Below are positions 8,855 through 54,189 of a DNA stretch of 64,000 bases, piece after piece. The stretch is taken from IMG/VR virus record IMGVR_UViG_3300027714_002832, one strand, 5' to 3'. The notes below the pieces were generated by a model that worked only from the letters and a program-made list of their open reading frames with translations, did not search any database and was not told the origin of the DNA. Position 1 is the first letter of the stretch. Every line of letters begins with the position of its first letter. The stretch is from a virus. Position numbers and translations under genes: made by a program.

Positions 8855-10080
8855 CAGAAATGTTAAAATGCGCATTTTGTCATAAGACACAAAAGCAAGT
8901 TTCTAAGTTACTTGCTGGTATAGACGAGCATATTTATATTTGTAATAAATGTGTTCATTTGTCACACAGCATTTTAGAGAAAGAAGATAAAACAAAAACA
9001 CTCAAAGATAAGAAACGTAAGTTACGTGATATTTTTGATACTGTCCCACCTAAACAAGTCCATGAATATTTAAACGAACATGTGATTGGTCAAGAAAAAG
9101 TTAAGAAAGGAATTAGTGTAGCAATATACAATCATTGTAAGAGAATCTTTAATGACACCGTTGTGCAAGTACAAAAATCAAATGTATTACTATTGGGTCC
9201 TACAGGTGTTGGTAAAACACTTATTGCACAAACGCTAGCAAGTTCAATGGATGTGCCATTCGTCATTACAGATGCAACTACGATTACTGAAAGTGGTTAT
9301 GCTGGAGATGATGCAGAAGTATTGATACATAAGTTATTCCAAAATTCTGATTATGATATTGCACGAACCGAGATTGGTATCATCTACGTAGATGAGATAG
9401 ACAAGAAAGCCAAGCGTAATGACATGGTAAGTTTAAGTCGTGATGTATCAGGCGAAGGTGTTCAACAAAGTTTACTGAAACTCATGGAAGGCACCACCAT
9501 CGCAGTACCTAATAAACATGATAGATCTCCTGAAAAAATAGATATAAATACAGAGAACATCTTATTCATTGTGGGCGGTGCTTTTATTGGATTAGAGAAA
9601 GTAGTTGAGCAGCGTCTAGGTAAATCAAAAATAGGATTTACTGGAAAAATGGCAAGCAAAGATTATAATTGGGAAGATGAACTTGAAACGAGTGATCTAG
9701 TTCAATATGGTCTAATACCAGAATTCTTAGGAAGATTACCATCAGTTAATGTATTACATGAATTATCTAAAGATGATTTGGTGCGTGTGTTGACTGAACC
9801 GAAAAATAGTATTGTAAAGCAATATCAAGCATTATTTGAATTAGATAATGTTAGTTTAGAATTTAAGCCATCTGCATTAAGAGCAATCGCAGAGACTTCT
9901 ATTAAGCAAGATCTAGGTGCAAGGGGATTACGCAAAATAATCGACAATGCACTCATTGATACACAATATGAATTACCCGACCTTGTAAGACAAGGCGTTC
10001 AGAAGATTATTATTAGTGAAGAAACTATAACTAGAGGAACAACACCACACATGATCAAAGGATCCATAAGTGAAAAATAA
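8851..10080 (+). CDS. clpX: ATP-dependent Clp protease ATP-binding subunit ClpX
   Basis: N-terminal C4 zinc finger CAFCHK...CNKC, Walker A LLGPTGVGKT, ClpX-type IGF/sensor blocks. Confidence 0.9.
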   Translation: MTEMLKCAFCHKTQKQVSKLLAGIDEHIYICNKCVHLSHSILEKEDKTKTLKDKKRKLRDIFDTVPPKQVHEYLNEHVIGQEKVKKGISVAIYNHCKRIFNDTVVQVQKSNVLLLGPTGVGKTLIAQTLASSMDVPFVITDATTITESGYAGDDAEVLIHKLFQNSDYDIARTEIGIIYVDEIDKKAKRNDMVSLSRDVSGEGVQQSLLKLMEGTTIAVPNKHDRSPEKIDINTENILFIVGGAFIGLEKVVEQRLGKSKIGFTGKMASKDYNWEDELETSDLVQYGLIPEFLGRLPSVNVLHELSKDDLVRVLTEPKNSIVKQYQALFELDNVSLEFKPSALRAIAETSIKQDLGARGLRKIIDNALIDTQYELPDLVRQGVQKIIISEETITRGTTPHMIKGSISEK

Positions 10081-14987: not shown

Positions 14988-16052
14988 ATGAACGCAGTTA
15001 ACGCTTGGACAGAGTTTCAACCATTGAAGAAAGTAGTATTGGGTGCACCATTCCCAGAAACTGCATTTGATTGGCACGAAGATGAAGAGACACGAGACAC
15101 TATGCGACAAATCTTCCGTGAAACAGCCGAAGATATTGAAGTACTAGCACAACTATTAGAAGCACGTGGAATTGAAGTGGTACGTCCCAAGAACATCTTT
15201 ACAATCACTGGTGAAGAACAGATTCAATTACCGTGGGCTCATTGTGCGTTTCCGAACCATCCATTAATGCCGCGCGATACGTTGATGCCATATGGTCATT
15301 CAATTTTTGAATGCTTTACAGGCGGTGACAATCGTTACTTTGAAAACCTAGCATACTATGATCACGTAGTAGAATGGTTTAAACAAGGTGCTGATTGGAT
15401 TTCAATGCCTGGCTGCATGGTAGAAACTGGTAAAGGATATGATGAATACGTAGCAGAGCAGCGTGTACTGTATCATGCTGCAAATATGATCAAGTGTGGT
15501 GATACTATCTTATTCAGTCAACCATACGAAGGTGACAACAAGCGTGGACGTGGTACGAATTTGGGCAAGGAATGGATGCAAAGAGAAATCAAACAGCGTT
15601 ATCCTGATACTAAATTTATTGATATTCCAATTGGTGGTCACATAGATGGTAAGATTGCATTATTGAAGCCGGGTGTTCTTATGACGTGGAACAAAGCATG
15701 GGTCCCAGAAGAATTCAAGAATTGGACAATCATTGAAGTAGAAGATGATTTTGACATGCCAGCAGATTTTCAAAATACACGTAAGCGTAGATACTATAAA
15801 GAGTATGTACAGAAGTGGTTAAGTCATTGGGTAGGTTATGCAGACGAGTCTGTATTTGATGTTAATGTATTATCATTGGATGAAAAGACGGTAATCTGTA
15901 CAGGTAAAAACGATGCAGCATTTGCTGAAATGGAAGCAAACGGAATTGAACCAATTGTTTGGCGATTCCGTCATCAGTATTTTTGGGATGGTGGTATCCA
16001 TTGCTTGACTAGTGATATCGTACGTGAAGGTAATTGTGAGAATTATTTATGA
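14988..16052 (+). CDS. amidinotransferase / guanidino-group-modifying enzyme superfamily protein
   Basis: C-terminal GGIHCLTSDIVREG resembles the catalytic-Cys GGxHCxT motif of amidinotransferases/ADI/DDAH. Confidence 0.55.
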   Translation: MNAVNAWTEFQPLKKVVLGAPFPETAFDWHEDEETRDTMRQIFRETAEDIEVLAQLLEARGIEVVRPKNIFTITGEEQIQLPWAHCAFPNHPLMPRDTLMPYGHSIFECFTGGDNRYFENLAYYDHVVEWFKQGADWISMPGCMVETGKGYDEYVAEQRVLYHAANMIKCGDTILFSQPYEGDNKRGRGTNLGKEWMQREIKQRYPDTKFIDIPIGGHIDGKIALLKPGVLMTWNKAWVPEEFKNWTIIEVEDDFDMPADFQNTRKRRYYKEYVQKWLSHWVGYADESVFDVNVLSLDEKTVICTGKNDAAFAEMEANGIEPIVWRFRHQYFWDGGIHCLTSDIVREGNCENYL

Positions 16053-17083
16053 GTATGCTATGGCGTGATAATATACAAAGCCTACAAGTAGATGTTACTA
16101 GTTATTGTAATGCTAAGTGTGGTGGATGCGCTAGAAATGACGACGGTCATGAAACAAGACCGGGTCTTATTCTTGAAAACTTTGATGTTGATGTATGGAA
16201 TCGTATGGCAGAGCATGATACCAAAGATATTTTTATTAATGAACTGGTATTAAACGGGAATTGGGGTGACTCTATGATGCATCCTAAAATTAAAGATATG
16301 GTTACAACATTTGCAAAATTTCATCCAGAAGCGAGTTTATATATCCATACCAATGGCAGTATGCGCACGACCAAATTCTGGGCTTCTTTTGCCAAAGTTT
16401 GTCGTCAATTCTCAAATCATCGTGTAGTTTTTGCAGTAGACGGTCTAGAAGATACACATGCGATATATCGTCGTAATACCGACTTTCTTAAAATTATGGA
16501 GAATATTAAAGCATTCACCGATGCGAATGGACGAGCGAGTGTAACCATGACCCTATTTGAACACAATAAACATCAAGTAGAAGAAGTTAAAAAAATAGCA
16601 CAATCGCTTAATGCAGATTTTACCTTACGTTACAGTCATGGAGATGGACTAGAAGTAATTGCGCCTGGCGAAAATTATATGATATATGCATGTGATGAAT
16701 TGCCCGAAGAGGAGGTAGAAGTAGAGCATGATAATTATAGATTAAGTGATTTACCAAATTATATGGATAATCTAATTATATCAGATGCAATAGAACCTGT
16801 CGCATCAACATGTCCGTGGTTAGCAGATCGTCAAGTGCAAATTGATCCATGGGGTACGGTGTGGCCATGTTGTCATATTAGTAATCATGCAAATTCCTTT
16901 TCATCAGAGTATACTGGGATCGCCGCAACTGATGATAATTTCGATGAAGGTAAACTAGCAAATAACCTGAAGCATACGCCGTTATATGATATCCTTAGTA
17001 ATCGGTGGTATGCGGATGTGTTACCTGATGCGGTAAAACATGAAAAATGGCTAGTTTGTCGTGATTCATGCTTTAGTGATTAA
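16049..17083 (+). CDS. radical SAM enzyme with C-terminal SPASM/twitch-like motif
   Basis: CNAKCGGC (Cx3Cx2C); C-terminal CPW...GTVWPCCH and CRDSC; paralogue of ORF 1309-2334. Confidence 0.8.
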   Translation: MSMLWRDNIQSLQVDVTSYCNAKCGGCARNDDGHETRPGLILENFDVDVWNRMAEHDTKDIFINELVLNGNWGDSMMHPKIKDMVTTFAKFHPEASLYIHTNGSMRTTKFWASFAKVCRQFSNHRVVFAVDGLEDTHAIYRRNTDFLKIMENIKAFTDANGRASVTMTLFEHNKHQVEEVKKIAQSLNADFTLRYSHGDGLEVIAPGENYMIYACDELPEEEVEVEHDNYRLSDLPNYMDNLIISDAIEPVASTCPWLADRQVQIDPWGTVWPCCHISNHANSFSSEYTGIAATDDNFDEGKLANNLKHTPLYDILSNRWYADVLPDAVKHEKWLVCRDSCFSD

Positions 17084-23538: not shown

Positions 23539-24219
23539 ATGCTATTTAATAAAGATGAAAAGAAGAAAAAGAAGTCACCAAAAAAAGAGATTCCTTCAGT
23601 AATTCCAGTACCCAAACAAGAACCAATGATGCCACCGCAGCCTGCTATGCCGATGCCTCCTGGACCTCCAAAGCAGCCGGGTGAACATTTACGCGATAAT
23701 GGTGTATTGTTCATGGATAAAGAATTCAATCAAGATAACTGTATGCCATTGGTAAAGATGATCATGGAATACAATCTCATGCCAGCAGATAAAGCACCAC
23801 AAGTTATTCACTTATATATCAATTCGCCTGGCGGGTATGTAGATTCGTGTATGCATCTGATTGATGTTGTAAAGCAATCCCGCATCCCTGTATATACATA
23901 CGGCATGGGTTCTATCGCTAGTTGTGGTGTAATGCTGATGATGTCTGGCGTTAAAGGACATCGTTATCTAACCCATAATACAGCAGTCATGTCACATGAA
24001 TTTAGTGGTGGCACTCGTGGTCAATATCACGATATGGTTGACAGTCAAAAACATATGGATTGGACAAATAAAAAATTGCTAGAACATTACAAGAAATGCA
24101 CTGGTAAGAATGAAAAATATATCCGTGAGTTTACACTAGCACCTAAGACAGATCATTGGTTAACACCAGAGCAAGCAGTAAAGCATGGTATCGCAGATCA
24201 TGTGATCGCAACATACTAA
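23539..24219 (+). CDS. ClpP-family (S14) serine peptidase, second paralogue with Pro-rich N-terminus
   Basis: INSPGGYVDS, GMGSIASCGVMLMMSG (Ser), AVMSHEFSGG (His); N-terminal KKKKK/PMMPPQPAMPMPPGPP. Confidence 0.75.
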   Translation: MLFNKDEKKKKKSPKKEIPSVIPVPKQEPMMPPQPAMPMPPGPPKQPGEHLRDNGVLFMDKEFNQDNCMPLVKMIMEYNLMPADKAPQVIHLYINSPGGYVDSCMHLIDVVKQSRIPVYTYGMGSIASCGVMLMMSGVKGHRYLTHNTAVMSHEFSGGTRGQYHDMVDSQKHMDWTNKKLLEHYKKCTGKNEKYIREFTLAPKTDHWLTPEQAVKHGIADHVIATY

Positions 24220-24229
24220 AGGTAGAATA

Positions 24230-24601
24230 ATGTTAAATAAAATATACAGCGTTATTGGTAACTTTTTTCTGAAACGTACTGATGAATATTGGCAAGAATG
24301 TGATTACGGCGAATGTGACGATGTTCCATTTAGTACTAGTAGGTTTGGGCGTAACGTTGGTGCCACTACTACGAAGTTGAAGAATCAAAGTCACCATCAA
24401 CTCACACCTGACACAGACCCATCATTCAATATCCGTATATATTCTGCAAAAGGTGGTCGCGTAGTTGAATGTCATACAACTACTAATCACGCTAATCAGC
24501 AATTCCAAGGTAGTAGTACAGACTTATATGTAATACCAGATGGTACTGATTTAGTTGATGAACTTGGTAAAATCTTAATGATGCACTCCTTGACAAAGTA
24601 G
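24230..24601 (+). CDS. hypothetical protein
   Basis: 123-aa ORF. Confidence 0.45.
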   Translation: MLNKIYSVIGNFFLKRTDEYWQECDYGECDDVPFSTSRFGRNVGATTTKLKNQSHHQLTPDTDPSFNIRIYSAKGGRVVECHTTTNHANQQFQGSSTDLYVIPDGTDLVDELGKILMMHSLTK

Positions 24602-24618
24602 TAAAACTAGTGTATAAT
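24590..24618 (+). promoter_or_regulatory. sigma70-like promoter
   Basis: TTGACA 24590-24595, 17 nt, TATAAT 24613-24618. Confidence 0.5.
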
Positions 24619-25576: not shown

Positions 25577-26077
25577 ATGAAGTATGTAGATATCGTTAAA
25601 TCTTTCATTAGCAATCATACATTAAATGTGATCGCAAGCACCATGATGTTTATTTCTTTATGTATGATTGATGATAATAAAACTATTGTGTCATTATGGG
25701 ACGGGTTTGCATTTTTTATGTATATGCTAGGTATTATACTTATGATTAGCCCACTTCATTATAAATCATATAGAATATTATACAATATCTACAGTAGATT
25801 TCCAACTTGGTTACAGATTCATTCACCATCTATACCGATACATTTGCGTAGAACTTATCAGACTGACATACCTGATGCGTGGAGTACAGTTGTACTACCA
25901 GAAAGAAATATACATGATGATTACTTCTCGTACGCTGATTGGTGTGCTGAAAACGTGATAGGTAGATATTATGTGGGACAGTGTTATCTCAATCCAGATA
26001 ATGCAAGATTACATGGATTTAAGGTTTATTTTGAATGTGAAAAAGAAGCATTCATGTTTAGAATGGCAAATACATAA
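25577..26077 (+). CDS. hypothetical protein, member of the C-terminal FKMA-motif family
   Basis: 166 aa; N-terminal TM region; C-term ECEKEAFMFRMANT. Confidence 0.5.
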   Translation: MKYVDIVKSFISNHTLNVIASTMMFISLCMIDDNKTIVSLWDGFAFFMYMLGIILMISPLHYKSYRILYNIYSRFPTWLQIHSPSIPIHLRRTYQTDIPDAWSTVVLPERNIHDDYFSYADWCAENVIGRYYVGQCYLNPDNARLHGFKVYFECEKEAFMFRMANT

Positions 26078-26081
26078 CAAG

Positions 26082-26101
26082 GCTCCTACTGGAGTTTTTT
26101 T
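26082..26101 (+). terminator. weak rho-independent terminator candidate
   Basis: CTCC-TACT-GGAG short hairpin then TTTTTTT. Confidence 0.35.
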
Positions 26102-26141
26102 GCGTCTTAAACATAAATACTATTAACGGGAGAATATTGCA

Positions 26142-26579
26142 GTGACAAAAGATTTTTTATTATGGTGGTTGATTTTTGTAATTCAATTGCTTGCACTTGG
26201 TACGGCATACTATTATGATTTACATATATATGCATTTGAAAATGACCAAACATATATAACTTTTGTATTGTTGGCACTATGGTTTTTAACAAGTTTGAAA
26301 ATTGGTCATAGAATCTATAAAAATTCTACCACATCAGATGAAACATATTGGTTCATCGCAGAAACATGTATGTCTATTGGTATGATGGGCACAGTTCTTG
26401 GATTCATCCTCATGTTAGATGGTAGCGAATTAGGTTCGTTAGATCCATCAAATATTCAAGCAATGAAAGGCGTAATCGGACAATTGGCGAATGGCATGGC
26501 AACAGCATTGTTGACTACATTGGTTGGATTGATCGTGTCTGTTTCATTGCGATCTCAACTTATCTTACAGGATAGATAA
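26142..26579 (+). CDS. MotA/TolQ/ExbB-family proton-channel protein (short form)
   Basis: GMMGTVLGFI and GQLANGMATALLTTLVGLIVSV match the conserved TM2-TM3 core of ExbB/TolQ/MotA. Confidence 0.6.
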   Translation: MTKDFLLWWLIFVIQLLALGTAYYYDLHIYAFENDQTYITFVLLALWFLTSLKIGHRIYKNSTTSDETYWFIAETCMSIGMMGTVLGFILMLDGSELGSLDPSNIQAMKGVIGQLANGMATALLTTLVGLIVSVSLRSQLILQDR

Positions 26580-26581
26580 AA

Positions 26582-27205
26582 ATGAGAGAAAGATATAGTT
26601 CTAATCTCGCATTCAATGATATATTATTCAATGCATTGTTAGGCTTTGTAACTTTATTCATTCTAGTACTAGTTCTAGTAAATCCTATTTCAAAACAAAA
26701 TGATATACCTGCATATGCAGAAATAATGATAATACTTGAATGGGATGGTGAAGTGGTCGATGATCTAGATATATGGGTCATAGGTCCTGGCATGGAATTC
26801 CCATTGAGTTTCCAAAATAAAACTAGTGGCTTCATGCATCTTGATAGAGATGATTTGGGAACCTCATCTGATACAGTACTGATTGACGGTGTTACACAGA
26901 TAATAAAAATTAATAGAGAAGTAGTTAACATGCGTGGTATAATGCCAGGCGACTATTTTGTTAATGTACATGTATATAGTAGACCGACTACAACAGAACC
27001 AACATCATTCACAGTATCGTTAATAGATATTAATCCATATAAAGAAGCAATTCATGTACAGCATCATGTAACCATGCGTAACGAAGTATTCAAAATACCA
27101 GCGTTTACAGTAGACGCTGAAGGTAATATATCAGATATTTTTATTAGTGATAGGTTGATACCACGACTAAATGCTGCAAGTGAATCTTCAAATGGAAGGG
27201 GATAA
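26582..27205 (+). CDS. ExbD/TolR-like membrane protein with extended periplasmic domain
   Basis: N-terminal AFNDILFNALLGFVTLFILVLVLV resembles ExbD/TolR TM segment; adjacent to ExbB-like gene. Confidence 0.4.
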   Translation: MRERYSSNLAFNDILFNALLGFVTLFILVLVLVNPISKQNDIPAYAEIMIILEWDGEVVDDLDIWVIGPGMEFPLSFQNKTSGFMHLDRDDLGTSSDTVLIDGVTQIIKINREVVNMRGIMPGDYFVNVHVYSRPTTTEPTSFTVSLIDINPYKEAIHVQHHVTMRNEVFKIPAFTVDAEGNISDIFISDRLIPRLNAASESSNGRG

Positions 27206-27207
27206 TT

Positions 27208-27726
27208 ATGTATAATATAATAGACACAATGAATATAGATACCATGATCATGTTGTATGTAATTGGCTTGTTTTTATTAGTAGTAATATGTGTATATGCA
27301 TTAATACAGAGCAAAGCAAATAGATTATACACATTTATCATTATACCAGCATCACTGGTAATGTCACTATATAGTTGGCAAGCGATTACCGCGTTACAAG
27401 GACTCCCAATATACGGATTGCCATATGATAAAGAGATACAGATATTATATACATATGACGAAAAGCCTTGGATATACATCCTATTGTCAGAACCAAATAA
27501 AGGACCTATATTATATAAAACAGATTGGAGTAAAGCCAATTTGCAGAAGTTAAATGAATTATCAGGAGACAATGGTCAATCACAGGCTCAAGGTAAATTC
27601 AACAAAGGGTTAAATGGTGAAGCAGTATCATTTGAAATGTCAAACATATTGCCTAATGGTCAGAGCGCACTTAAACGACCACCCAAACCCCGTAGTATAA
27701 CAATAAACGAAGGAGGAGGTCTATAA
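27208..27726 (+). CDS. hypothetical membrane protein
   Basis: 172 aa, 2 TM helices. Confidence 0.45.
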   Translation: MYNIIDTMNIDTMIMLYVIGLFLLVVICVYALIQSKANRLYTFIIIPASLVMSLYSWQAITALQGLPIYGLPYDKEIQILYTYDEKPWIYILLSEPNKGPILYKTDWSKANLQKLNELSGDNGQSQAQGKFNKGLNGEAVSFEMSNILPNGQSALKRPPKPRSITINEGGGL

Positions 27727-27977
27727 TGGATGCACCACAAGCAGTATTATTAGTAGCACATTATGTAGTATCATTATTCGGAATGCAATTAGGCGGACCA
27801 GTAATGAAATCATATCCATATCCAACAATGGAAATTTGCGAAATATATAAAAAAGAGATGGAAGGTGATTTTAAACTTGACATGGAATATAGCCTAATCA
27901 CACGAACAGATTGTGTTACTATAGCAAAATTCAAAGAGATAACCGCGCCTAAGAAACAGGAGACTACTGATGAATAA
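27726..27977 (+). CDS. hypothetical small protein
   Basis: 83-aa ORF. Confidence 0.4.
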   Translation: MDAPQAVLLVAHYVVSLFGMQLGGPVMKSYPYPTMEICEIYKKEMEGDFKLDMEYSLITRTDCVTIAKFKEITAPKKQETTDE

Positions 27978-28854
27978 AATAATGAACGTATTCAAGATTG
28001 TGCTTGGATACATTAAACATATACCATTGGTTACATTGATAATCAGGTTATACAATAAAATATCACATAGTGTACCATTAGTAATAATGGCGATAATCAT
28101 ATTATTATTCTCTGCTAATCAAATACATACATGGTATTCCCATTACATGGTTCTTTATATTGAAGCAAATAAAGATAAAGAATCAGAAGAATCTAAGAAA
28201 GAACCTGGACTTGTATTCACTCAAATAGATGATAACTTATATACATTGACAGGCGCAGTGGGTGAAGGAGATTGCGAACGCATTGTTCCTGACTTACCAC
28301 AATCATTTACTGTTATTTTAGAAAGCCCAGGTGGTAGTCTATCAGAAGGTTCATGTCTTGCTGCACATTTTAAGTTACGTGATGTAGTTACAGTAGTACG
28401 TGGAACAGAAGTATTTAATGAAAATGGCAAAGTAATATACACGCCAGGCACAGTGAATTTAAACAGTGAAAATACAAAAGATAGCAACAAAGATAAGTCA
28501 ATGTGTGCATCTGCATGTGGTCTTTTATTTCTAGCAGGCGATAAACGATACTTAATAGGTGATGTCTTGTTCGGCATACACGGTCCACGCACACCATTAG
28601 AATCTATTACTAAAATGCACCCAGCAGCACTAGAAGCATCTGCATATCGCACAGCGGCAGCATTAATAAAACTATTAGAAAGACTAGGAGTTGATGAAGC
28701 ATTAAGATTGCTATTCATACAAATTCCATCCGCGTCAATGTATTGGTTACATCCAAGAGATTTTAACGCAAAACCAGAATTAGTTACAATTGCAACTAAT
28801 TACAAAAACTTCTGGAGTTATTCAGCATCAAACTCAGAAGCAGCCCTAAAATAG
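27970..28854 (+). CDS. membrane-anchored ClpP/S49-class (NfeD-like) serine protease candidate
   Basis: 2 N-terminal TM helices; ILESPGGSLSEG and SMCASACGLLFLAG blocks resemble ClpP-fold S49/NfeD proteases. Confidence 0.45.
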   Translation: MNKIMNVFKIVLGYIKHIPLVTLIIRLYNKISHSVPLVIMAIIILLFSANQIHTWYSHYMVLYIEANKDKESEESKKEPGLVFTQIDDNLYTLTGAVGEGDCERIVPDLPQSFTVILESPGGSLSEGSCLAAHFKLRDVVTVVRGTEVFNENGKVIYTPGTVNLNSENTKDSNKDKSMCASACGLLFLAGDKRYLIGDVLFGIHGPRTPLESITKMHPAALEASAYRTAAALIKLLERLGVDEALRLLFIQIPSASMYWLHPRDFNAKPELVTIATNYKNFWSYSASNSEAALK

Positions 28855-28865
28855 GAGAAGATTAA

Positions 28866-29930
28866 ATGTTAAAAAGTTTCTTTGGAACTAAAGAAAGCGC
28901 AGTATATGCATGGGTAATGCTTGCATTCTTGTTAGTTATTACTTGGTACAATGTACAAATATTAGTAGCATACAACTTGTGGAACAAAGAGTTCTATGAT
29001 TCAATTCAAACTCTTCAACAAGAAAGATTTTGGCAACTACTATGGGGATTTGATATGATCAGATTTACCGAGTTGCTAACATTAAAAGAAGACACCGTAC
29101 CATCATTCTTGGAAATTATAATCCTATATACACCAATGGCTACATACGTTATATGGCAGACACAGAGATATACATTCAGATGGCGTGAAGCGAATACACA
29201 TCACTATCTTAAACGATGGGAGAAATCTACCGCTAAGATAGAAGGTGGTTCACAGCGTATTCAAGAAGATTTAATGGTATTCGGTAAAACATTACAAGGT
29301 CTATTCACTGGATTCTTTAGTGCAATACTTGTATTATTTGCATTCTTACCTATCTTATGGGAATTATCAGAAGGTCTACCAGTTTGGAATGGTCAAATCA
29401 TTCCAGGATTCTTAGTGTGGGTAGCACTGACTATCTCAATCGGTGGCACATTGATCTCATTCATATTGGGTATGAAATTGCCTGGACTAGAATACAATAA
29501 CCAAGTGGTAGAAGCAAAATTCAGAAAGAAATTAGTTCATTCAGAAGATGATATAACGCAGCGTGTAACTGATGATTTATTTCCAATGTTCGCAGCAGTC
29601 AAGAAAAACTATTATCGCTTATTTAACTGGTATATGGGCTTTGGTGTATGGTCAACTGCATTCGGTTTAGCAGCGGGCAATATCGCAATCGTGGTATTAG
29701 CACCAAGTTACTTTGAGCAGTTAATCACATTAGGTGTTCTATTCCAAGTACTTAACGCATTTGGTAGAGTAGAAGGTTCAATGACATTCTTTATTGATAG
29801 ATGGACAACGATTGTTGACTTCCAATCAGTGATTAAACGATTGCGTGAATTCAACAAAGTATTGGATGAAGCAGAATTAAATCCTACACCACCAGTAAAG
29901 AAGAAACGAGCATATCGTAAGAAAGCATAA
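28866..29930 (+). CDS. SbmA/BacA-family inner-membrane peptide transporter homologue
   Basis: MLKSFF start, NLWNKEFYDSIQ, KIEGGSQRIQEDLMVF, LPGLEYNNQVVEAKFRKKLVHSEDD, VKKNYYRLFNWYMGF, VLNAFGRVEGS blocks colinear with E. coli SbmA. Confidence 0.75.
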   Translation: MLKSFFGTKESAVYAWVMLAFLLVITWYNVQILVAYNLWNKEFYDSIQTLQQERFWQLLWGFDMIRFTELLTLKEDTVPSFLEIIILYTPMATYVIWQTQRYTFRWREANTHHYLKRWEKSTAKIEGGSQRIQEDLMVFGKTLQGLFTGFFSAILVLFAFLPILWELSEGLPVWNGQIIPGFLVWVALTISIGGTLISFILGMKLPGLEYNNQVVEAKFRKKLVHSEDDITQRVTDDLFPMFAAVKKNYYRLFNWYMGFGVWSTAFGLAAGNIAIVVLAPSYFEQLITLGVLFQVLNAFGRVEGSMTFFIDRWTTIVDFQSVIKRLREFNKVLDEAELNPTPPVKKKRAYRKKA

Positions 29931-29946
29931 CACATCTTATGTAAAA

Positions 29947-29971
29947 AAAGACGCTAAATGCGTCTTTTTTA
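29947..29971 (+). terminator. rho-independent terminator
   Basis: AAGACGC-TAAAT-GCGTCTT hairpin then TTTTTT. Confidence 0.8.
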
Positions 29972-29994
29972 TTGCATTTATTTTACTCAAACAC

Positions 29995-30023
29995 TTGACA
30001 AGTAAGACGCATTGCGTTATAAT
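29995..30023 (+). promoter_or_regulatory. conserved phage promoter module
   Basis: ACACTTGACAAGTAAG, 17 nt, TATAAT then GTTACATAAGTTAATTAAAG. Confidence 0.6.
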
Positions 30024-31509: not shown

Positions 31510-31865
31510 ATCTCCAAAAACTGATAAAAAGTTTTCAGTGTGTCGCACTATGGAAGAAGCACGTGGATAACATTAGAACACAATATATATGCAGACTATT
31601 CCCAAACGGTGTAATTAGAGAAGAGCAATGGGGATATGATCCGATAAATGCCGAGAATCATCGTGGAGACTATGAATACATAGTTAGGTGGCATCGCCTA
31701 GATGGACCGGCACATATCGTGTATAATAAGTTGGGTTATATCACGCGATATAAATGGTGGGTCAATGGTGAACTAATAACTAGTGACGTATTAGAAAAAT
31801 ACTTTGTGGATGCACTAAACCCAACAGACGAAGAGATATTTATATTTAAAATGGCTAAAGTATGA
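31473..31865 (+). CDS. hypothetical protein, WHxxDGPA/FKMA family
   Basis: WHRLDGPAHIVYNKLGYITRYKWWVNGE and C-term DEEIFIFKMAKV; paralogue of 59263-59514. Confidence 0.45.
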   Translation: MSTSNEEISQWLDLQKLIKSFQCVALWKKHVDNIRTQYICRLFPNGVIREEQWGYDPINAENHRGDYEYIVRWHRLDGPAHIVYNKLGYITRYKWWVNGELITSDVLEKYFVDALNPTDEEIFIFKMAKV

Positions 31866-32059
31866 TTAAAAATAAAATAAATCCTAGATGGTTTCGTGTA
31901 ACACGACCTATTGGTAGTTTGATAAGTCGTTCGGCAGATGTAGATGAGCATTGGTGCGAAAAAAATTGCATCGGTAAATTCACAAACTCTCCTATGGGAT
32001 CGAACTTCTGGTTTGAGAAAGAAGAAGATGCAATGATGTTTAAAATGGCAAACAGTTAA
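31862..32059 (+). CDS. hypothetical small protein, FKMA-motif family
   Basis: C-term FEKEEDAMMFKMANS matches 25577-26077 C-term. Confidence 0.45.
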   Translation: MIKNKINPRWFRVTRPIGSLISRSADVDEHWCEKNCIGKFTNSPMGSNFWFEKEEDAMMFKMANS

Positions 32060-32065: not shown

Positions 32066-32094
32066 TTGACAAGTAACACTCGTCATGCTATAAT
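32066..32094 (+). promoter_or_regulatory. sigma70-like promoter upstream of prs
   Basis: TTGACAAGTAAC, 17 nt, TATAAT 32089-32094. Confidence 0.55.
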
Positions 32095-32127: not shown

Positions 32128-33099
32128 ATGAAAATTATTGCAGGTAACAGTAACAAAAAAATGGCACTTGCCATTGCAGAAAGGTGCTTTGCGTCACTCG
32201 TATCCGCAGATATCAAAACATTTGCAGATGGTGAATCAAGTGTACAGTTTAACGAGAACATTCGTGGCGAAGATGTTTTCATCATTCAATCAACGTCTAC
32301 TCCTGTTAATGACAATCTTATGGAATTGTTGGTTATGATTGACGCTGCAAAACGTAGCAGTGCAACTCGCATTACCGCAGTAATGCCATACTTTGGATAT
32401 GCACGCCAAGATCGTAAGAGTGCATCCCGTACTCCCATCACAGCAAAACTAGTAGCAGACTTACTAACAACAGCGGGCGCAGACAGAATCCTTACAATGG
32501 ACTTACACGCAGGACAAATACAGGGATTCTTTGATATTCCAGTCGATGATCTAACATCCCGTATTGCGTTTGCTAAAGATATTAAGAAGCAATTCTTCAA
32601 AGAAGGTGCTGACGTAACCGAGATTGAAACTGTATTTGTAAGCCCAGATGCAGGCGGTACAGTTCGTGCACGTAAGTTTGCTGACATGTTTGGTGGTGAT
32701 ATTGCCATTGTAGACAAGCGCAGACCACGTGCTGGTGAAAGTGAAGTTATGGGATTAATTGGCGATGTCAAAGGACAACACGCTATTCTAGTAGACGACA
32801 TTATTGACTCAGGTGGTACATTATGTAATGCTGCTCAAGCAATCATGGATGCTGGTGCACTTAGTGTTAGGGCATATATTACACATGGTGTACTTAGTGG
32901 TACTGCTTGTCAAAAAGTTGAAAAGAGTGTACTCACTGAACTAGTAATCACTGACAGCATTGAATTTAATTGTCCAGCAGATCATACAAAAACTAGAACA
33001 GTAAGTGTAAGTCAAATGTTTGGTGAAGCAATTCGTCGTGTCACTAACGAAGAAAGTGTCAGTAGTTTATTCACCCAACTAGTAAGACCTATAGTATGA
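32128..33099 (+). CDS. prs: ribose-phosphate pyrophosphokinase (PRPP synthetase)
   Basis: N-terminal [37 protein letters not shown] loop [11 protein letters not shown]. Confidence 0.9.
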
Positions 33100-34847: not shown

Positions 34848-35759
34848 ATGAACGAAACAACTCGAACACGTAGGTCCCCAGGAGCCAAAATCGCCATTGG
34901 TGCATTCACCGCAATCGTTGCAATTGTTGTGCTTATAGTCGCATTCAATGCATGGACAATTGTAGGTGTAGGTAAAGAGAAAGTAGGTGCTACTTTTGGT
35001 AAAGTGCACGAGTCTGCACTAGGATCAGGCTTCTATATTGTTAACCCACTTGCAGACTTTGAACGTTACGACTTGCAAGAAGTTACGTATACATGGGAAG
35101 ACTTGGGTGTACCAGCACAAGATAATCTAAAAACATCAATGGACGTTGCTATTACTGGTCATTTTATATCTGGTATGACAGCAAATGTACGTGAAAATAT
35201 TGGTTCTAGCGATGGATTTATGGCATCACAAGTAAATCGCAGGGTGCCTGCTATGATTGTTGAAGTAGGTAAAGAACTTGCTGTTGTTTCACAAGACTTT
35301 TATGGTGAAACTACTCTTGCACGTATGGAAACTGAAATCAAGTTCCGACTTAATAAAGAACTACAGCAACGTGGATATCAAATTACTACTGTGAAGTTCT
35401 CAGATATCAACTTACCACAAGTAGTAACAGCAGCAATCGTAAAAACTAAGCAACGTCAACAAGAAGTTAACGAGCAGTTGGCTAAGTTGAAAATCGCTGA
35501 CTTGCAAGCACAAGAGAAGACAGCAGAAGCACAGGCTGCATCTAAGTCTGCCGCATTTAATGCAACAGCAGCAGAGTTAACAGCAGATGCAGAATTATAT
35601 CGCATTCAACGGGTCGCAGAAGGTAACTTAGCACTATCAGCGTCAGTTACAGACAAATTGATTGAATTGAAAGAAGCAGAGGCAGGTCTATTGTGGAATG
35701 GTGTTATGCCAACTACCATGCTAGGTGCAACTCCAAATGTATTAATGAATCTTAAATAA
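34848..35759 (+). CDS. SPFH/band-7 (prohibitin/HflK-like) membrane protein
   Basis: N-terminal TM helix followed by SPFH-like core and C-terminal Ala/Gln coiled coil. Confidence 0.55.
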   Translation: MNETTRTRRSPGAKIAIGAFTAIVAIVVLIVAFNAWTIVGVGKEKVGATFGKVHESALGSGFYIVNPLADFERYDLQEVTYTWEDLGVPAQDNLKTSMDVAITGHFISGMTANVRENIGSSDGFMASQVNRRVPAMIVEVGKELAVVSQDFYGETTLARMETEIKFRLNKELQQRGYQITTVKFSDINLPQVVTAAIVKTKQRQQEVNEQLAKLKIADLQAQEKTAEAQAASKSAAFNATAAELTADAELYRIQRVAEGNLALSASVTDKLIELKEAEAGLLWNGVMPTTMLGATPNVLMNLK

Positions 35760-36908: not shown

Positions 36909-37370
36909 ATGAAATTAAGTAAAAATTTCACAGTAAGTGAATACACAAAATCATCAACTGCAACTCGTAGGTGCATTGATAATTCAATGACTCCAGAACA
37001 TCTAGTAAGTGCTAAAGCCTTATTTGAAAATGTAGTTCAACCAGTAAGAGATCACTTTGGTCCTACTGTTATCACATCTGGATACCGATCAGATGCATTA
37101 AATGATGCAATTGGCGGTGCACGTGGTTCTCAACATTCAAAAGCAGAAGCCGCAGATTTTGAAACAAAATATTCTACAGTAGAAACTGCACAATGGATTG
37201 CAGATACTTTAGACTTTGATCAACTAATCTTGGAATTTTATGTTCCCGGTGACCCTAACTCAGGTTGGACTCATTGTAGTTATAAATCAAAGGCGGAAAA
37301 TAGAAACCAAATCTTAACCGCAGTCAAGGAAGATGGTAAAACCGTTTATAAACATGGAATCGTAACATAA
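36909..37370 (+). CDS. peptidase M15 family (L-Ala-D-Glu / D-Ala-D-Ala peptidase, endolysin-like)
   Basis: FTVSEY...ITSGYRS..LN..IGGARGSQHSKAEAADFE zinc-peptidase M15 motifs (H-x6-D ... H). Confidence 0.7.
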   Translation: MKLSKNFTVSEYTKSSTATRRCIDNSMTPEHLVSAKALFENVVQPVRDHFGPTVITSGYRSDALNDAIGGARGSQHSKAEAADFETKYSTVETAQWIADTLDFDQLILEFYVPGDPNSGWTHCSYKSKAENRNQILTAVKEDGKTVYKHGIVT

Positions 37371-37404
37371 TTAGAATTGGTATAATAACCCAAGGAAATA
37401 AAAT

Positions 37405-37611
37405 ATGAGTACATTAGATAGTTTAACACACCATAAAGAAGTACTAGAACAACGTCATCGTTTATTAGATAAGGTCATTGCTGACATGTATAAACAAAAT
37501 TCAGATGATGTATTACTACATACTATGAAAAAAGAAAAGTTACAACTACGTGACGAAATTGAAGTAATGAATATTCAATTGGAACAAAATAAATCAAAAA
37601 CTTTCAATTAA
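37405..37611 (+). CDS. hypothetical coiled-coil protein
   Basis: 68-aa ORF. Confidence 0.4.
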   Translation: MSTLDSLTHHKEVLEQRHRLLDKVIADMYKQNSDDVLLHTMKKEKLQLRDEIEVMNIQLEQNKSKTFN

Positions 37612-37614
37612 CAC

Positions 37615-37643
37615 TTGACAAGTAACTCATATTGTTATATAAT
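37615..37643 (+). promoter_or_regulatory. conserved phage promoter module
   Basis: ACACTTGACAAGTAAC, 17 nt, TATAAT 37638-37643. Confidence 0.6.
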
Positions 37644-37777
37644 ATCTATATTAAATAAGGAAGTAATTATGTTTTGGTTATTACACGCAGCAGCATTAAT
37701 CGTTATGCCTCTTGCATTATTTGTGACTATACCACTACATCTCATTTCTAATCAACTATAGTTAAGGAATTAACAAT

Positions 37778-38431
37778 ATGAAATTTTTACTTGTATGTTC
37801 ATTTTTGACGTTATTAGGTGCAGCGGCTTACGGTGAATTTGGAATGGCATCAGGAAAATTGCTCGTACCTGCAAAGATTGATTTATCAGAAGATGAGTCT
37901 TGGATAAAGATTCAAGGTCGTTCTGATAGAAAATTCTTTCTGACTAATCCAGAGAAGCATCCCCAAATCTTTTGCCTTGCAAAGAATATATATTTTGAAG
38001 CAGGTATTGATAGTCGCGCTGGCATGTACGCTGTGGCAGATGTAACATTAAATCGTGTAACAGACTCACGATGGGGTAATACAGTATGTGATGTTGTTCA
38101 TCATGGAGCAAAAAAAGAGAGTTGGAAAACAAAGCAAGATCCTACTCTTCCTGATTCATTACGAATATATTATCCTGTTAAGAACAAGTGTGCATTTTCA
38201 TGGTATTGTGACGGCAAGCCAGACACCATCCCTTATGGAAGCACCAACTGGATTAAATCACAACACATAGCATGGGATATTTACATGAATGGTAATTATA
38301 GTGGAATCACAGAAGGATCTACCCACTACCATGCATCGTATGCTACATTCGGACAAGGTGATTGGCGCAAAGATCGTGGCATGCAATTCATAAGTCTTAT
38401 AGGACAGCACATCTTTTATCGGTGGAACTAA
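37778..38431 (+). CDS. secreted cell-wall hydrolase (SleB/CwlJ Hydrolase_2 family)
   Basis: signal peptide MKFLLVCSFLTLLGAAAYG; CLAKNIYFEAG...GMYAVADVTLNRV...WGNTVCDVV blocks. Confidence 0.7.
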   Translation: MKFLLVCSFLTLLGAAAYGEFGMASGKLLVPAKIDLSEDESWIKIQGRSDRKFFLTNPEKHPQIFCLAKNIYFEAGIDSRAGMYAVADVTLNRVTDSRWGNTVCDVVHHGAKKESWKTKQDPTLPDSLRIYYPVKNKCAFSWYCDGKPDTIPYGSTNWIKSQHIAWDIYMNGNYSGITEGSTHYHASYATFGQGDWRKDRGMQFISLIGQHIFYRWN

Positions 38432-39916: not shown

Positions 39917-39970
39917 TTAAGATAAGTGGTCGACGATTCACAAAATTCGCAGTTACTAATGGAGATTAAA

Positions 39971-41185
39971 ATGTCGAATCCAACATATATGGATTATTCA
40001 TCAACGACCCCAGTAGATCCACAGGTCGCCAAAAAAATGGCAGATTGTTTAACAATGGAAGGCAACTTTGGCAATCCTGCATCACGTTCACATACGTACG
40101 GATGGGAAGCAGAAGCAGCCGTTGATAAAGCACGTAAACAAGTAGCAGATTTGATTGGAGCAGATACACGAGAGATTGTATGGACATCAGGCGCAACTGA
40201 ATCAAACAATCTAGCACTTAAAGGCATTGCTCAGTTTTATGCAAAACGTGGTAAGCATATTATTACGTTACGAACAGAACATAAAGCAATACTAGATACT
40301 TGTCGTCAACTAGAACGAGAAGGGTTTGAAGTAACTTACTTAGACCCAATGCCCAACGGTTTACTAGACATTGAAGTGTTTAAAAATACAATCAGAGAAG
40401 ACACCATTTTAGCATCATTTATGCATGTTAATAATGAGATTGGTGTTATACAAGACTTACACGCCATTGGTGATATCTGTAGAGAACATAAAGTATTCTT
40501 CCATGTTGACGCTGCTCAATCAGTAGGCAAAATGCCAATTGACTTAGCAACGCTCCCAGTAGATTTAATGAGTTTTTCCGCACATAAGATATACGGACCT
40601 AAAGGCATGGGTGCATTGTATGTATCACGTAAACCTAGAGTTCGTCTTGAAGCACAAATGCATGGTGGTGGACACGAACGCGGTATGCGATCTGGTACAT
40701 TAGCAACACATCAAATTGTTGGAATGGGTGAAGCATTTGCTATTGCACAAGAAATGATGGCAGAGGAAGAAGTTAGAACACGCGCACTCAGAGATAGGTT
40801 ATACGCGGGATTCTCAGATATGGAAGAAGTAGTAGTCAATGGTGATTTTGAACAGCGTATTGGCAGCAACTTAAATATCAGTTTCAATTACGTAGAGGGT
40901 GAATCTCTATTAATGGCAATCTCTAATATTGCAGTATCTTCTGGTTCTGCATGTACATCTGCAAGTCTTGAACCATCATACGTTCTTAGAGCGTTAGGAC
41001 TTAGTGACGAATTAGCACACAGTTCAATTCGATTTAGTGTTGGTCGTTATACAACAGAAAAAGATGTAGATGATGCAATTATTCTAGTACGACAGAAAGT
41101 AGAAAAATTAAGAGACTTATCACCATTATGGGACATGTACAAAGATGGTGTTGATTTAAGTACGGTACAATGGGCTGCTCACTAA
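39971..41185 (+). CDS. iscS: cysteine desulfurase IscS/NifS
   Basis: start set at [16 protein letters not shown] (RBS GGAGA); PLP Lys block [16 protein letters not shown]; active-site SSGSACTS. Confidence 0.9.
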
Positions 41186-41908: not shown

Positions 41909-42691
41909 TTGGCAACCACATATGAAACTGTGTTAGAAGTAATTCATTACACAGACGAATTATTTTATTTCAAAACAACACGTAATCCAGGATTCAGATT
42001 TAAAGATGGTGAATTCGTTATGATGGGTTTAGATCATTTCTCAGAAAAACTTCAAAAGAATAAACCTATATTGAGAGCATACAGTATTGCTTCTCCATCG
42101 TACGCTGAATACTTAGAATTCTATAGTATCAAAGTACAAGATGGTCCGTTAACAAGTAAATTACAGCATGTTAAAGTAGGTGACAAAATCCTAGTAGGTA
42201 CTAAACCAACTGGTACATTAGTCCCAGATAATGTCAAGCCAGGTCGTAATCTATATATGTTAAGTTCGGGCACTGGCGTAGCACCATTTATGGGGTTAGC
42301 ACGTAGTCTTGATATTTACGACAACTATGATAATGTAATATTGGTACACGGTACTAGAAAGATCGAAGATTTAGTTTGGAAAGATATGTGGTTAGGTCTT
42401 AACGAACACGAATTGTATGGTGAGTTAGTGCAGAATAAATTCCATTATTACGCAACGGTTTCTCGTGAAGAATATGAGAATGAAGGCAGAGTAACTACCG
42501 CACTATTCGATCATTCGATAGAAGACAAGTTACAGTTACCACATCTTGATTCTGAATTCGATAGAGTTATGATTTGCGGGTCTATTCCATTCAATGAGGA
42601 TTTACAAAATCATCTACTTGAAAAAGGATTCGTTGAAGGTAACATGAGTGATCCAGGCACATTCGTAGTAGAACGTGCATTCGTAGGATAA
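41909..42691 (+). CDS. ferredoxin/flavodoxin-NADP(+) reductase (Fpr-like)
   Basis: FAD-binding RAYSIASP, NAD-binding LYMLSSGTGVAPF blocks of plant-type FNR family. Confidence 0.75.
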   Translation: MATTYETVLEVIHYTDELFYFKTTRNPGFRFKDGEFVMMGLDHFSEKLQKNKPILRAYSIASPSYAEYLEFYSIKVQDGPLTSKLQHVKVGDKILVGTKPTGTLVPDNVKPGRNLYMLSSGTGVAPFMGLARSLDIYDNYDNVILVHGTRKIEDLVWKDMWLGLNEHELYGELVQNKFHYYATVSREEYENEGRVTTALFDHSIEDKLQLPHLDSEFDRVMICGSIPFNEDLQNHLLEKGFVEGNMSDPGTFVVERAFVG

Positions 42692-44188: not shown

Positions 44189-44743
44189 ATGAGTAAAGAA
44201 ATCTTGGCAGAAACGGTTGCTCACACTGCTCATGCAGCAGTCGGACAATTAAGGAAATACAGTGATGAACCATACATTGTTCATCCTCGTGAAGTAGCAG
44301 AGATTGTTAGGTTTTACGGTGGATCTACTATTCAAATTCAAGCCGCATTCCTTCATGACGTGGTAGAAGATACTTCACTTACAGTTGATTTCATATCTAA
44401 AATGTTTGGTACAGAAGTCGCTACAATGGTAGATTGGCTAACTGATGTATCTGTTCCCGACGATGGTAACAGGAAAATTAGAAAAGCACTTGATCGCGCA
44501 CACTTAGCAGATGCTCCTTTAGAGGCTCAATTTGTAAAAGTTGCTGACTTGATTTCAAACACCAAATCTATATGCGAGGCTAATGAAGGGTTCGCAATAG
44601 TCTATATGCAAGAAAAAGAATTATTGTTACGTGACATGACCAAAATTCACGGGACTGACATATACAATCGTGCAATGCGATTACTAGAACAATATTATGT
44701 GGGAACACCACATGAACCGTTATTAACAGGAGAACTCAAATGA
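44189..44743 (+). CDS. HD-domain (p)ppGpp hydrolase (small alarmone hydrolase / Mesh1-like)
   Basis: YIVHPREVAEIV and AAFLHDVVEDT: canonical RelA/SpoT-type HD hydrolase motif, no synthetase domain. Confidence 0.7.
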   Translation: MSKEILAETVAHTAHAAVGQLRKYSDEPYIVHPREVAEIVRFYGGSTIQIQAAFLHDVVEDTSLTVDFISKMFGTEVATMVDWLTDVSVPDDGNRKIRKALDRAHLADAPLEAQFVKVADLISNTKSICEANEGFAIVYMQEKELLLRDMTKIHGTDIYNRAMRLLEQYYVGTPHEPLLTGELK

Positions 44744-49090: not shown

Positions 49091-49091
49091 T

Positions 49092-50464: not shown

Positions 50465-50580
50465 AGTGCAAGGTAATTAGGCATAGCCATGATAGGCGAT
50501 GATGTTAAAATTATAGCCAATGTGACTGTCGCCACTTTAGCCAATAGCACTACTGCTTGCTTAATATATATTTTCATAAT
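50461..50580 (-). CDS. small hydrophobic peptide (39 aa)
   Basis: MKIYIKQAVVLLAKVATVTLAIILTSSPIMAMPNYLAL; below ORF-track cutoff. Confidence 0.25.
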   Translation of the reverse strand: MMKIYIKQAVVLLAKVATVTLAIILTSSPIMAMPNYLAL

Positions 50581-50586
50581 TATTCC

Positions 50587-51237: not shown

Positions 51238-51288
51238 CGGTGTGGCATATCGTCAACGTAGGTACCACAATATGGGCATAGAATCTGA

Positions 51289-54179: not shown

Positions 54180-54189
54180 AATTTATCTC

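Follow-up and report, generated by a model that had tools for sequence, protein, structure and literature searches.

A viral six-gene cluster joins a minimal MotA/ExbB-family triplet, recurrently linked to cell wall hydrolases, to a peptidase candidate and an SbmA-type transporter

Organization of the six-gene cluster

We analysed a 64,000-nucleotide (nt) stretch of viral DNA (IMG/VR record IMGVR_UViG_3300027714_002832, the whole of which is here called the window) and in it a cluster of six genes at positions 26142 to 29930. These encode a small protein of the MotA/ExbB/TolQ family (A), a single-pass membrane protein (B), two conserved membrane or exported proteins (C and D), a peptidase candidate (Pep), and a transporter of the SbmA/BacA family. 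The window is AT-rich (approximately 36% GC), gene dense, and phage-like. All six open reading frames (ORFs) lie on the + strand, where a first-pass annotation had placed them, and are spaced by no more than 11 nt or overlap. As read from its sequence, the region from 26142 to 29930 is a single tightly packed transcription unit, in which the six genes are co-transcribed. Its parts are as follows.

26081 to 26101, + strand: weak hairpin (CTCC-tact-GGAG) with a run of seven T residues, read from the sequence, directly 3' of the stop codon of the upstream gene
26112 to 26119, + strand: promoter-like motif CATAAATA (of the NATAAATA type), 23 nt (22 intervening bases) before the GTG of A
26128 to 26133, + strand: ribosome-binding site GGGAGA, preceding the GTG at 26142
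26142 to 26579, + strand: A, minimal MotA/ExbB/TolQ-family protein of 145 amino acids (aa) with a GTG start (Pfam PF01618)
26582 to 27205, + strand: B, single-pass N-in membrane protein of 207 aa with a predicted periplasmic beta-sandwich
27208 to 27726, + strand: C, membrane protein (family alignment)
27726 to 27977, + strand: D, exported or anchored protein of 83 aa with a hydrophobic N terminus and two invariant Cys residues
27970 to 28854, + strand: Pep, candidate membrane-anchored ClpP-fold Ser/His peptidase (profile links via an intermediate family)
28866 to 29930, + strand: SbmA/BacA-family transporter (SbmA-like peptide transporter, SLiPT), core transmembrane (TM) helices 1 to 6 (Pfam PF05992)
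29944 to 29970, + strand: strong intrinsic terminator (11-bp stem and T run) that closes the unit
29995 to 30023, + strand: perfect sigma-70 promoter (TTGACA-17-TATAAT) that starts the next gene

The hairpin marks the upstream limit of the transcription unit. Its position is kept in ten related loci (L002, L032, L034, L037, L038, L041 to L043, L048, and L067), far stronger hairpins occupy that place in related loci, and most of the latter have, ahead of the A gene, a terminator and then (N)ATAAATA. The NATAAATA-type motif is one that we take to resemble a T4-type late promoter. Twelve of the 26 copies of ATAAATA in the window fall in intergenic DNA, which makes up 8% of the window, and 10 of these 12 are sense oriented and precede a gene or tRNA by 25 to 85 nt, one of these genes being that of the M15 peptidase at 36909; each tRNA-Ala gene of the window has the motif approximately 30 to 40 nt upstream. 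Enrichment of TATAAATA was considered and rejected: the strict 8-mer is not enriched overall, and it is the relaxed ATAAATA that is strongly intergenic. Perfect (12 of 12) sigma-70 promoters were found three times (24590 to 24618, 29995 to 30023, and 32066 to 32094), preceding the clamp loader gene, ORF 30056, and the phosphoribosyl pyrophosphate (PRPP) synthetase gene; they are unlike the NATAAATA class of the operon.

The same six-gene block was found in marine contigs of 190 to 326 kb, and the source of the window is therefore best described as a marine jumbo myovirus. One 192-kb IMG/VR contig (IMGVR_UViG_3300031647_000750) is approximately 98 to 100% identical to the window at the protein level. 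The gene content of the window includes ClpX, ClpP, a clamp loader of the replication factor C type, DNA ligase, PRPP synthetase, an IscS-like enzyme, many radical S-adenosylmethionine (rSAM)/SPASM proteins, and three tRNAs. The nearest cultured relatives of the clamp loader belong to the group of Pseudomonas jumbo phage PA5oct (53% identity). A DNA-level search with positions 26000 to 30000 against cultured phages gave zero matches.

Conservation of two separable modules

Iterative searches yielded 165 fetched loci (L-numbers), among which were 86 distinct viral loci carrying B; the synteny counts given here refer to these, and counts for flanks refer to the DNA fetched around each B locus. 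At least 290 IMG/VR stretches encode a relative of B. A, B, and C form a near-invariant contiguous triplet, with A present at 85 and C at 82 of the 86 loci and with stop and start codons that usually overlap, and the genes for Pep and SbmA were contiguous in every case. The two groups are joined in either of two orders, A-B-C-D-Pep-SbmA or Pep-SbmA-A-B-C-ClpP, and in the second of these the SbmA stop codon overlaps or abuts the start of A. D was confined to the first order, between C and Pep (17 distinct homologues in the alignment). SbmA was found in the flank of 29 of the 86 loci. The triplet stood without a flanking SbmA gene at the other 57, so that an obligate link of the stator-like pair to SbmA is not supported, and in one 342-kb contig the two groups lie approximately 31 kb apart. 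The cluster is composed of two separable modules, A-B-C and D-Pep-SbmA. Protein C belongs with the stator-like pair, a point that the first-pass annotation had missed. The grouping of these genes is not a matter of chance, since dozens of viral contigs have them side by side, in two gene orders. Two fetched loci from one 23-kb contig (L021 and L112, both IMGVR_UViG_3300006947_000085) have A-B at approximately 2 kb and C-D-Pep-SbmA at approximately 20 kb, an apparent separation of some 17 kb that may reflect an insertion between B and C.

At 33 of the 86 B loci a clpP gene is present in the flank, in many cases overlapping C or lying directly before A. The window has such a gene outside the unit, and no signal peptide was found in its product.

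23539 to 24219, + strand: ClpP of the cytoplasmic type (Pfam CLP_protease, E = 3e-32)

Marine T4-like phages also encode, a few genes upstream of ClpP-A-B-C, a protein in which a large CHASE2 sensor domain is joined to a domain of the adenylate/guanylate cyclase type (L006:12-2033; homologues occur in L009 and L016).

Among cultured phages, the triplet is carried by Rhizobium phages (RL2RES_110-112, EVB99_065-067 in RHph_N3_19, and EVB91_122-124 in RHph_I1_18), in which all three genes are annotated as hypothetical. It is located among replication and recombination genes in both T4-like and Rhizobium phages. A cellular counterpart is present in Azospirillum chromids, in an ordinary chromosomal context; on NZ_CP012915.1 of Azospirillum brasilense Sp7, where the triplet occupies approximately 985.5 to 987.4 kb, the B homologue is 36% identical (E = 4e-25), and A and C match with E values of 6e-10 and 1e-5. 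Its neighbours, read by eye, include a BON-domain protein and a PhyR-like regulator, both stress related. A look-up of cluster members returned no informative names, searches of B, C, D, and Pep against Pfam, PHROGs, NCBIfam, and PADLOC gave scores at noise level only, and a literature search on phage MotA/ExbB-like proteins or triplets, phage SbmA, and ExbB-like lysis genes retrieved nothing relevant.

A minimal MotA/ExbB-family protein

Complexes of the MotA/ExbB type are known as the power source of flagella, of gliding, of transport by TonB and Tol, and of Zorya defence. Over residues 68 to 134, protein A scored 30 bits against the Pfam family MotA_ExbB (PF01618; gathering score, 22.9; E = 4.9e-7), and of its 95 database homologues only one lacks a precomputed match to this family; the copy from Rhizobium phages matched weakly (E = 0.028). 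Four TM helices were recognized by reading the sequence, and a simple hydropathy scan flagged three segments. The cytoplasmic loop between helices 2 and 3, also read from the sequence, is approximately 14 residues long, and A is therefore predicted to be without a cytoplasmic output domain. The last two helices contain the motifs GMMGT (T84) and GMATALLTT (T125/T126), which align with GLFGTVWG and GIAEALLATAIGL of ExbB. In an alignment of 25 diverse sequences of the A family, down to 20% identity, G80, G83, G129, D35, and T37 are invariant and T84 and T125/T126 are kept in 90% or more, and the conserved patterns of the last two helices are G-x-x-G-T and G-M-x-T-A-L-x-T-T-x-x-G-L. The top PDB matches of the family profile were ExbB, ZorA, TolQ, and MotA. 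Judged by these comparisons, A is a genuine member of the MotA/ExbB family, apparently cut down to four TM helices, and the MotA/TolQ/ExbB core that had been noticed in this 145-aa ORF is upheld.

A single-pass Asp protein with a predicted beta-sandwich

The gene immediately 3' of A encodes a single-TM protein with a conserved Asp residue, and the two genes are adjacent at 85 of the 86 loci. This residue (D13, within the motif AFNDILFN) is invariant in the TM helix across 25 B sequences of 26 to 80% identity. The surrounding pattern F-x-D-[IV]-[LM] (AFNDILF) resembles PFIDVML of E. coli ExbD, the sequence of which was verified against 6tyi, and B has the N-in/C-out topology of ExbD and MotB. 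The periplasmic domain contains an invariant acidic cluster (D61, D63, D90, D91, and E113; HLDRDDLG). In the AlphaFold2 (AF2) model, an N-terminal helix (residues 2 to 33) is followed by a C-terminal domain of approximately 150 aa that forms a beta-sandwich (predicted local distance difference test [pLDDT] score, 80). Neither B nor 21 homologues matched any Pfam family, including ExbD (PF02472), even at an E value of 10; a PDB sequence-profile search with B gave no match, and a BFVD fold search with the model gave no significant one. The periplasmic fold of B is predicted from the model to be a TerD-like beta-sandwich and not the ExbD fold, and it looks like a candidate Ca2+- or glycan-binding domain. 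The first-pass annotation had called B an ExbD/TolR-like partner of A with a periplasmic domain that is not OmpA-like. The single TM helix, the invariant Asp, and the size and non-OmpA character of the domain agree with that description; the absence of a PF02472 match and the predicted fold do not.

A and B may form a 5:2 ion-driven assembly. They share with the MotA-MotB and PomAB stators a four-TM A-type protein and a B-type protein with a TM Asp and a periplasmic domain of the anchoring type, and they differ from them in the lack of the large rotor-contact loop of MotA, of an OmpA-like peptidoglycan-binding domain, and of a flagellar context. There is also a likeness to Tol and Exb systems: A belongs to the same Pfam family, with Thr and Gly residues conserved in the last two TM helices, and B has their topology and an essential-looking Asp in the shared motif. 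Unlike the Tol and Exb channel proteins, A has four TM helices and essentially no cytoplasmic domain, and the predicted beta-sandwich of B contrasts with the alpha/beta fold of ExbD and TolR.

It had also been suggested that the cluster could be a miniature Zorya-like module that acts against superinfection; such a module would sense the envelope perturbation caused by a second phage. A has the MotA/ExbB-type TM core of ZorA and gave weak PADLOC and NCBIfam matches to it (best E value, 1e-6). These matches are limited to the TM core common to the whole superfamily, and the NCBIfam scores were 15 to 19 bits, compared to cutoffs of 100 to 500. In addition, the 145-aa A protein has no ZorA-type cytoplasmic tail, B has no ZorB-type domain, no ZorC-, ZorD-, or ZorE-like effector genes were found, PADLOC was blank for the other five proteins, and the triplet sits in phages and, on an Azospirillum chromid, beside an amidase gene. 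We regard a Zorya-like role as highly improbable.

Protein C, its lysozyme fusions, and the link to wall hydrolases

Of the two hydrophobic segments of C, one is strong and the other weaker; the protein further has a periplasmic region that is conserved, a charged linker, and a short motif at the C terminus. It matched no family in any of the libraries searched. The first-pass annotation had counted the products of 27208 to 27726 and 27726 to 27977 as further membrane proteins, which agrees with our finding that both are conserved membrane or exported proteins; neither C nor D matches a described family. At 10 distinct loci of marine T4-like phages, C is extended at its C terminus by a lysozyme of glycoside hydrolase family 24 (GH24; Pfam Phage_lysozyme, E = 1.2e-47; PDB lysozyme, E = 1.5e-37), and each of the 16 fusion ORFs found has an intact catalytic motif, E-X8-D-X5-T; L006:8679-9578 is one such fusion. 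A GH24, M15, or Hydrolase_2 gene lies within 2.5 kb in a further 7 loci, and other lineages encode a T4-e-like lysozyme or an M15 peptidase one or two genes ahead of A. In the syntenic loci L009 and L004, an unfused C is accompanied by a separate Hydrolase_2 gene, and the corresponding slot lacks Hydrolase_2 in two loci with a fused C, L006 and L014. The divergent neighbour of the Azospirillum triplet encodes an AmiA/AmiC-type amidase (PDB 3ne8, E = 1e-51). Membrane-protein genes that are combined with interchangeable endolysin types are a trait of phage lysis cassettes; observed for the triplet were these 10 fusions and 7 nearby genes, with a hydrolase of any kind in the flank of 20 of the 86 loci. 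The recurrent tie between the triplet and these enzymes points to a role in the cell wall or lysis over one in transport. Adjoining the Hydrolase_2 gene of T4-like phages is a gene for a lipoprotein (L009:14415-14840; lipobox LTGC) of the 17-kDa antigen/glycine-zipper family, which, together with a 73-aa ORF, is missing where C is fused to lysozyme.

In the window, a candidate wall-hydrolase cluster lies 7 to 8.5 kb 3' of the end of the operon.

36909 to 38431, + strand: candidate wall-hydrolase cluster, which also includes a 68-aa coiled ORF
36909 to 37370, + strand: Peptidase_M15_3 protein, with its own NATAAATA motif
37615 to 37761, + strand: 48-aa ORF with a single TM segment
37778 to 38431, + strand: Hydrolase_2 (SleB-like) protein with an N-terminal hydrophobic segment

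This region is probably a lysis cluster, and its hydrolases are possible clients of the triplet.

The same evidence bears on two explanations other than the one that we favour below. The first is that A and B form a gated proton leak, analogous to a pinholin, that collapses the proton motive force (PMF) late in infection and thereby frees or activates tethered or signal-anchored hydrolases. MotAB stators whose plug is missing are leaky to protons and halt growth, and the family assignment of A, the invariant Asp of B, the membrane tethering of the C-lysozyme fusions, the N-terminal hydrophobic segments of Hydrolase_2 proteins, and the T4-late-like promoter motif upstream would all suit such a channel. 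The chromosomal copy of Azospirillum, beside a housekeeping amidase, argues against a purely lethal device, the small TM ORF by the hydrolases of the window could be a conventional holin, and no plug helix is evident in the AF2 model of B. We consider a depolarizing channel distinctly unlikely. The second is that a Tol-like A-B-C complex maintains the outer layers of the envelope over the long infection cycle of a jumbo phage, with Pep-SbmA an independent pair that shares a promoter by ancestry. The modules are indeed separable, replication and recombination genes surround the triplet in phages of the T4-like and Rhizobium groups, and its cellular copy has stress-related neighbours. On this account, the recurrent fusion or adjacency to three distinct classes of wall hydrolases and the complementary loss of Hydrolase_2 would need a separate explanation, and the linkage in one operon has survived rearrangement; we judge it improbable as well.

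Pep, a candidate ClpP-fold peptidase

Pep gave no direct match to Pfam, and a PDB sequence-profile search with it found none. Its family alignment contains the invariant motifs ESPGG (residues 118 to 122), CASACG (S181), and GIHGP (H204) and four invariant Cys residues. An exhaustive hidden Markov model (HMM) search identified distant relatives (profile A4), to which the Pep family profile (A2) aligned in hhalign with a probability of 99.9% (E = 2e-33). These intermediates aligned in turn to ClpP over 160 columns (97%, E = 8e-11), with SPGG, Ser, and His in register, and the Pep family aligned directly to ClpP with a probability of 64% (E = 6.5e-5). Pfam CLP_protease was matched by 9 of 42 distant relatives and NfeD1b_N by 2 of 42, and relatives bear Sel1, SH3, or PAN domains, which fits a periplasmic family. 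By profile transitivity, Pep appears to have the ClpP fold of the ClpP (S14), SppA (S49), and NfeD N-terminal peptidases, with the SPGG oxyanion-loop motif and an invariant catalytic Ser and His. Unlike these proteins, it has no direct HMM match and carries a CxSxC motif with the four Cys, and it has a one-TM anchor and is probably periplasmic. The first-pass annotation had listed it as an NfeD-like membrane protease; it stands as a protease candidate and is not NfeD. No NfeD match and no C-terminal NfeD oligonucleotide/oligosaccharide-binding (OB) domain was found, and an NfeD-SPFH pairing was rejected, the SPFH gene being approximately 5 kb 3' of the cluster and not conserved near Pep. That gene (34848 to 35759) encodes an SPFH/Band 7 (stomatin-like) membrane protein (Pfam E = 5.5e-15; phrog_200) and in the fetched flanks recurs only in the near-identical contig.

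The SbmA/BacA-type transporter

The product of the last gene matched Pfam SbmA_BacA (PF05992) at 270 bits over profile positions 5 to 314 of 315 and aligned to residues 91 to 396 of the E. coli SbmA structure (7p34; E = 3e-56), in keeping with its earlier identification as an SbmA/BacA homologue. Its best NCBIfam model was the short-type PRK12369 (303 bits, under the cutoff of 385). Since the alignment begins at SbmA residue 91, the TM0 domain (TM0a/0b) of the E. coli protein is missing. SbmA is a proton-driven importer with a glutamate ladder and gate formed by E193, E203, E276, E287, E378, R190, R280, K281, Y285, and D288 (PMC8442886). The transporter retains E193, E276, E287, R190, R280, K281, D288, and Y116, has Asp in place of E378, and so keeps most of these residues. 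Its nearest cellular relatives are SAR11 (Pelagibacteraceae) proteins of approximately 40% identity, with which it shares the full-length Pfam core match, the short PRK12369 type, and a similar length. It differs from them in being phage encoded and in always having the Pep gene just before it; no other module protein, including Pep, was detected at those SAR11 sbmA loci. From its sequence, the transporter is best read as a core-only SbmA/BacA homologue without TM0, with peptide uptake as its predicted activity. Our literature search found no report of a phage-encoded SbmA. A record named "Acinetobacter phage MD-2021a" (L066, CAKLQH020000002.1) was rejected as a cultured-phage SbmA, its sbmA gene having an ordinary bacterial chromosomal context, and a record named "Gammaproteobacteria MAG" (metagenome-assembled genome; L070, PBDY01000027.1, 106 kb) contains a viral Pep-SbmA-A-B-C-ClpP block at 79% SbmA identity; both are probably mislabelled. 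A "Nanoarchaeia MAG" record (L071, DATDUI010000117.1) encodes an SbmA homologue that is 54% identical to the phage protein, and other module proteins were not detected in its fetched flanks.

The main earlier idea was that the cluster could form an energized import device. In it, A-B(-C) would act as ExbB-ExbD-TonB does and drive a peptide or other solute through the outer layers, Pep would process this cargo, and the SbmA-like protein would take it across the inner membrane. The union of six genes in one operon, the persistence of that union in two gene orders, the parallel between A-B-C and tolQ-tolR-tolA, and the proton-driven import by SbmA (PMC8442886) are what would be expected of such a device. 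The triplet is found without a flanking SbmA gene in the 57 loci given above, in Rhizobium phages, and in Azospirillum, the modules of the 342-kb contig are far apart, neither an outer-membrane receptor nor a TonB-like C-terminal domain was found, and the C-lysozyme fusions do not fit pure transport. We find energized import unlikely. The rSAM genes are not associated with the cluster elsewhere, and the module occurs in phages with no rSAM gene among the annotated neighbours, which leaves unsupported the earlier idea that the cargo is a modified peptide from the rSAM island of the window.

A proposed role in control of wall hydrolysis

We tentatively favour, with somewhat less than even confidence, a Tol/Exb-like, PMF-coupled transducer that acts on peptidoglycan hydrolysis and is joined to a periplasmic peptidase and a peptide importer. 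This functional model is proposed because of the gene order, the predicted topology, the lysozyme fusions, and the cellular neighbour. The homologies, the operon, the synteny, the fusions, and the cellular counterpart are well supported, whereas assembly into a complex, topology, coupling to the PMF, the client hydrolases, and the cargo of the transporter are inferred. A would surround the TM helices of B, with a proton path through Asp13 of B and the conserved Thr residues of A. Because A is predicted to have no cytoplasmic domain, the output would have to be periplasmic and would pass from the beta-sandwich of B to C, which occupies the gene position of TolA or TonB and might position or gate a peptidoglycan hydrolase. 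The time and place of wall cutting would then be under the control of the PMF, and phages would use the device late in infection. The client hydrolase would be the one fused to C in some phages and the one encoded next to the triplet in others, and it may be the AmiC-type amidase in Azospirillum. In the second module, D-Pep-SbmA, the membrane-anchored, putatively periplasmic peptidase most likely cuts periplasmic proteins or peptides, the products of which the proton-coupled importer would take in.

As in TolQ-TolR-TolA and ExbB-ExbD-TonB, a channel protein is followed by a single-TM Asp protein and a membrane-anchored periplasmic third protein. Unlike TolA and TonB, to which it has no similarity, C probably has two hydrophobic segments and may bear a lysozyme, and no Pal, TolB, or TonB-dependent receptor partners were seen. 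The proposed role is functionally analogous to those of FtsEX-EnvC-amidase and of pinholins with signal-arrest-release (SAR) endolysins, in which an inner-membrane device, driven by energy or the PMF, governs a periplasmic wall hydrolase that is membrane tethered in some lineages; the triplet has no sequence relationship to either, and its energy is proposed to come from ion flow through a MotA/ExbB-type channel.

Several results weigh against the model. A wall hydrolase was present in the fetched flank of only 20 of the 86 loci, so that the association, which is recurrent and spans four enzyme classes, is not universal, and no hydrolase adjoins the triplet in Rhizobium phages or in the window, where the nearest is approximately 9 kb distant; the shared ancestry of the phages could account for part of the synteny. 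Alignment of B in hhalign with ExbD (verified) and TolR gave a probability of 0.4%, and alignment with TerD (query checked against 2kxt) was negative. The Asp of the ClpP triad is not conserved in Pep, the AF2 model of Pep is unreliable (pLDDT, 52), and its location in the periplasm and its activity are presumptive. E203 of SbmA, the proposed first proton site, is Gln in the transporter, and Y285 and Y368 are replaced by His and Phe. Finally, because the NATAAATA motif also stands ahead of tRNA and rSAM genes, the "late" timing is not established.

A bolder form of the proposal, which we regard as doubtful, is that A-B-C is an undescribed branch of the 5:2 ion-driven motor superfamily that mechanically controls peptidoglycan hydrolases, works in alphaproteobacteria with AmiC-type amidases, and has been captured by phages. 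If true, it would give phages, in addition to holins and pinholins, a third means of timing or localizing wall breakdown, with a muramidase bolted directly to the transducer in some phages, and it would be the first virus-encoded stator-type motor. A minimal phage-borne motor that has novel partner domains and is linked to wall hydrolases would extend the outputs of this superfamily and suggest a new principle of lysis control. The triplet is abundant and testable, since cultured Rhizobium phages and Azospirillum make genetics possible. The constant presence of the conserved Pep gene ahead of SbmA suggests, in turn, that phages of nutrient-poor oceans may make use of recycled periplasmic protein or imported peptides.

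Additional features of the window

Two otherwise dissimilar ORFs, 25577 to 26077 and 31862 to 32059, share a C-terminal motif (...YFECEKEAFMFRMANT and ...WFEKEEDAMMFKMANS), which looks like a small common C-terminal domain. The window ClpX (8851 to 10080) has a zinc finger and an AAA domain. Auxiliary metabolic genes encode a class-V aminotransferase/IscS-like protein (39926 to 41185), a protein with an NAD-binding oxidoreductase domain (41909 to 42691), an HD_4 protein (RelA/SpoT-type HD; 44189 to 44743), and PRPP synthetase (32128 to 33099). Two tRNA-Ala(TGC) genes and one tRNA-Thr(TGT) gene lie at 919 to 1230. A switch of the coding strand from + to - at approximately 47300 coincides with a change in sign of the GC skew. 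A large set of rSAM/SPASM paralogues occupies 47921 to 60754 (- strand), 1309 to 2334 (+ strand), and 16049 to 17083 (+ strand). A tblastn search with the ORF at 54190 to 55749 against cultured phages gave zero matches. Radical-SAM matches were obtained for at least six ORFs of the window, four of which have Radical_SAM and SPASM Pfam matches together. Unannotated ORFs of 400 to 520 aa are interspersed among these paralogues, in which SPASM is often N-terminal to the rSAM domain.

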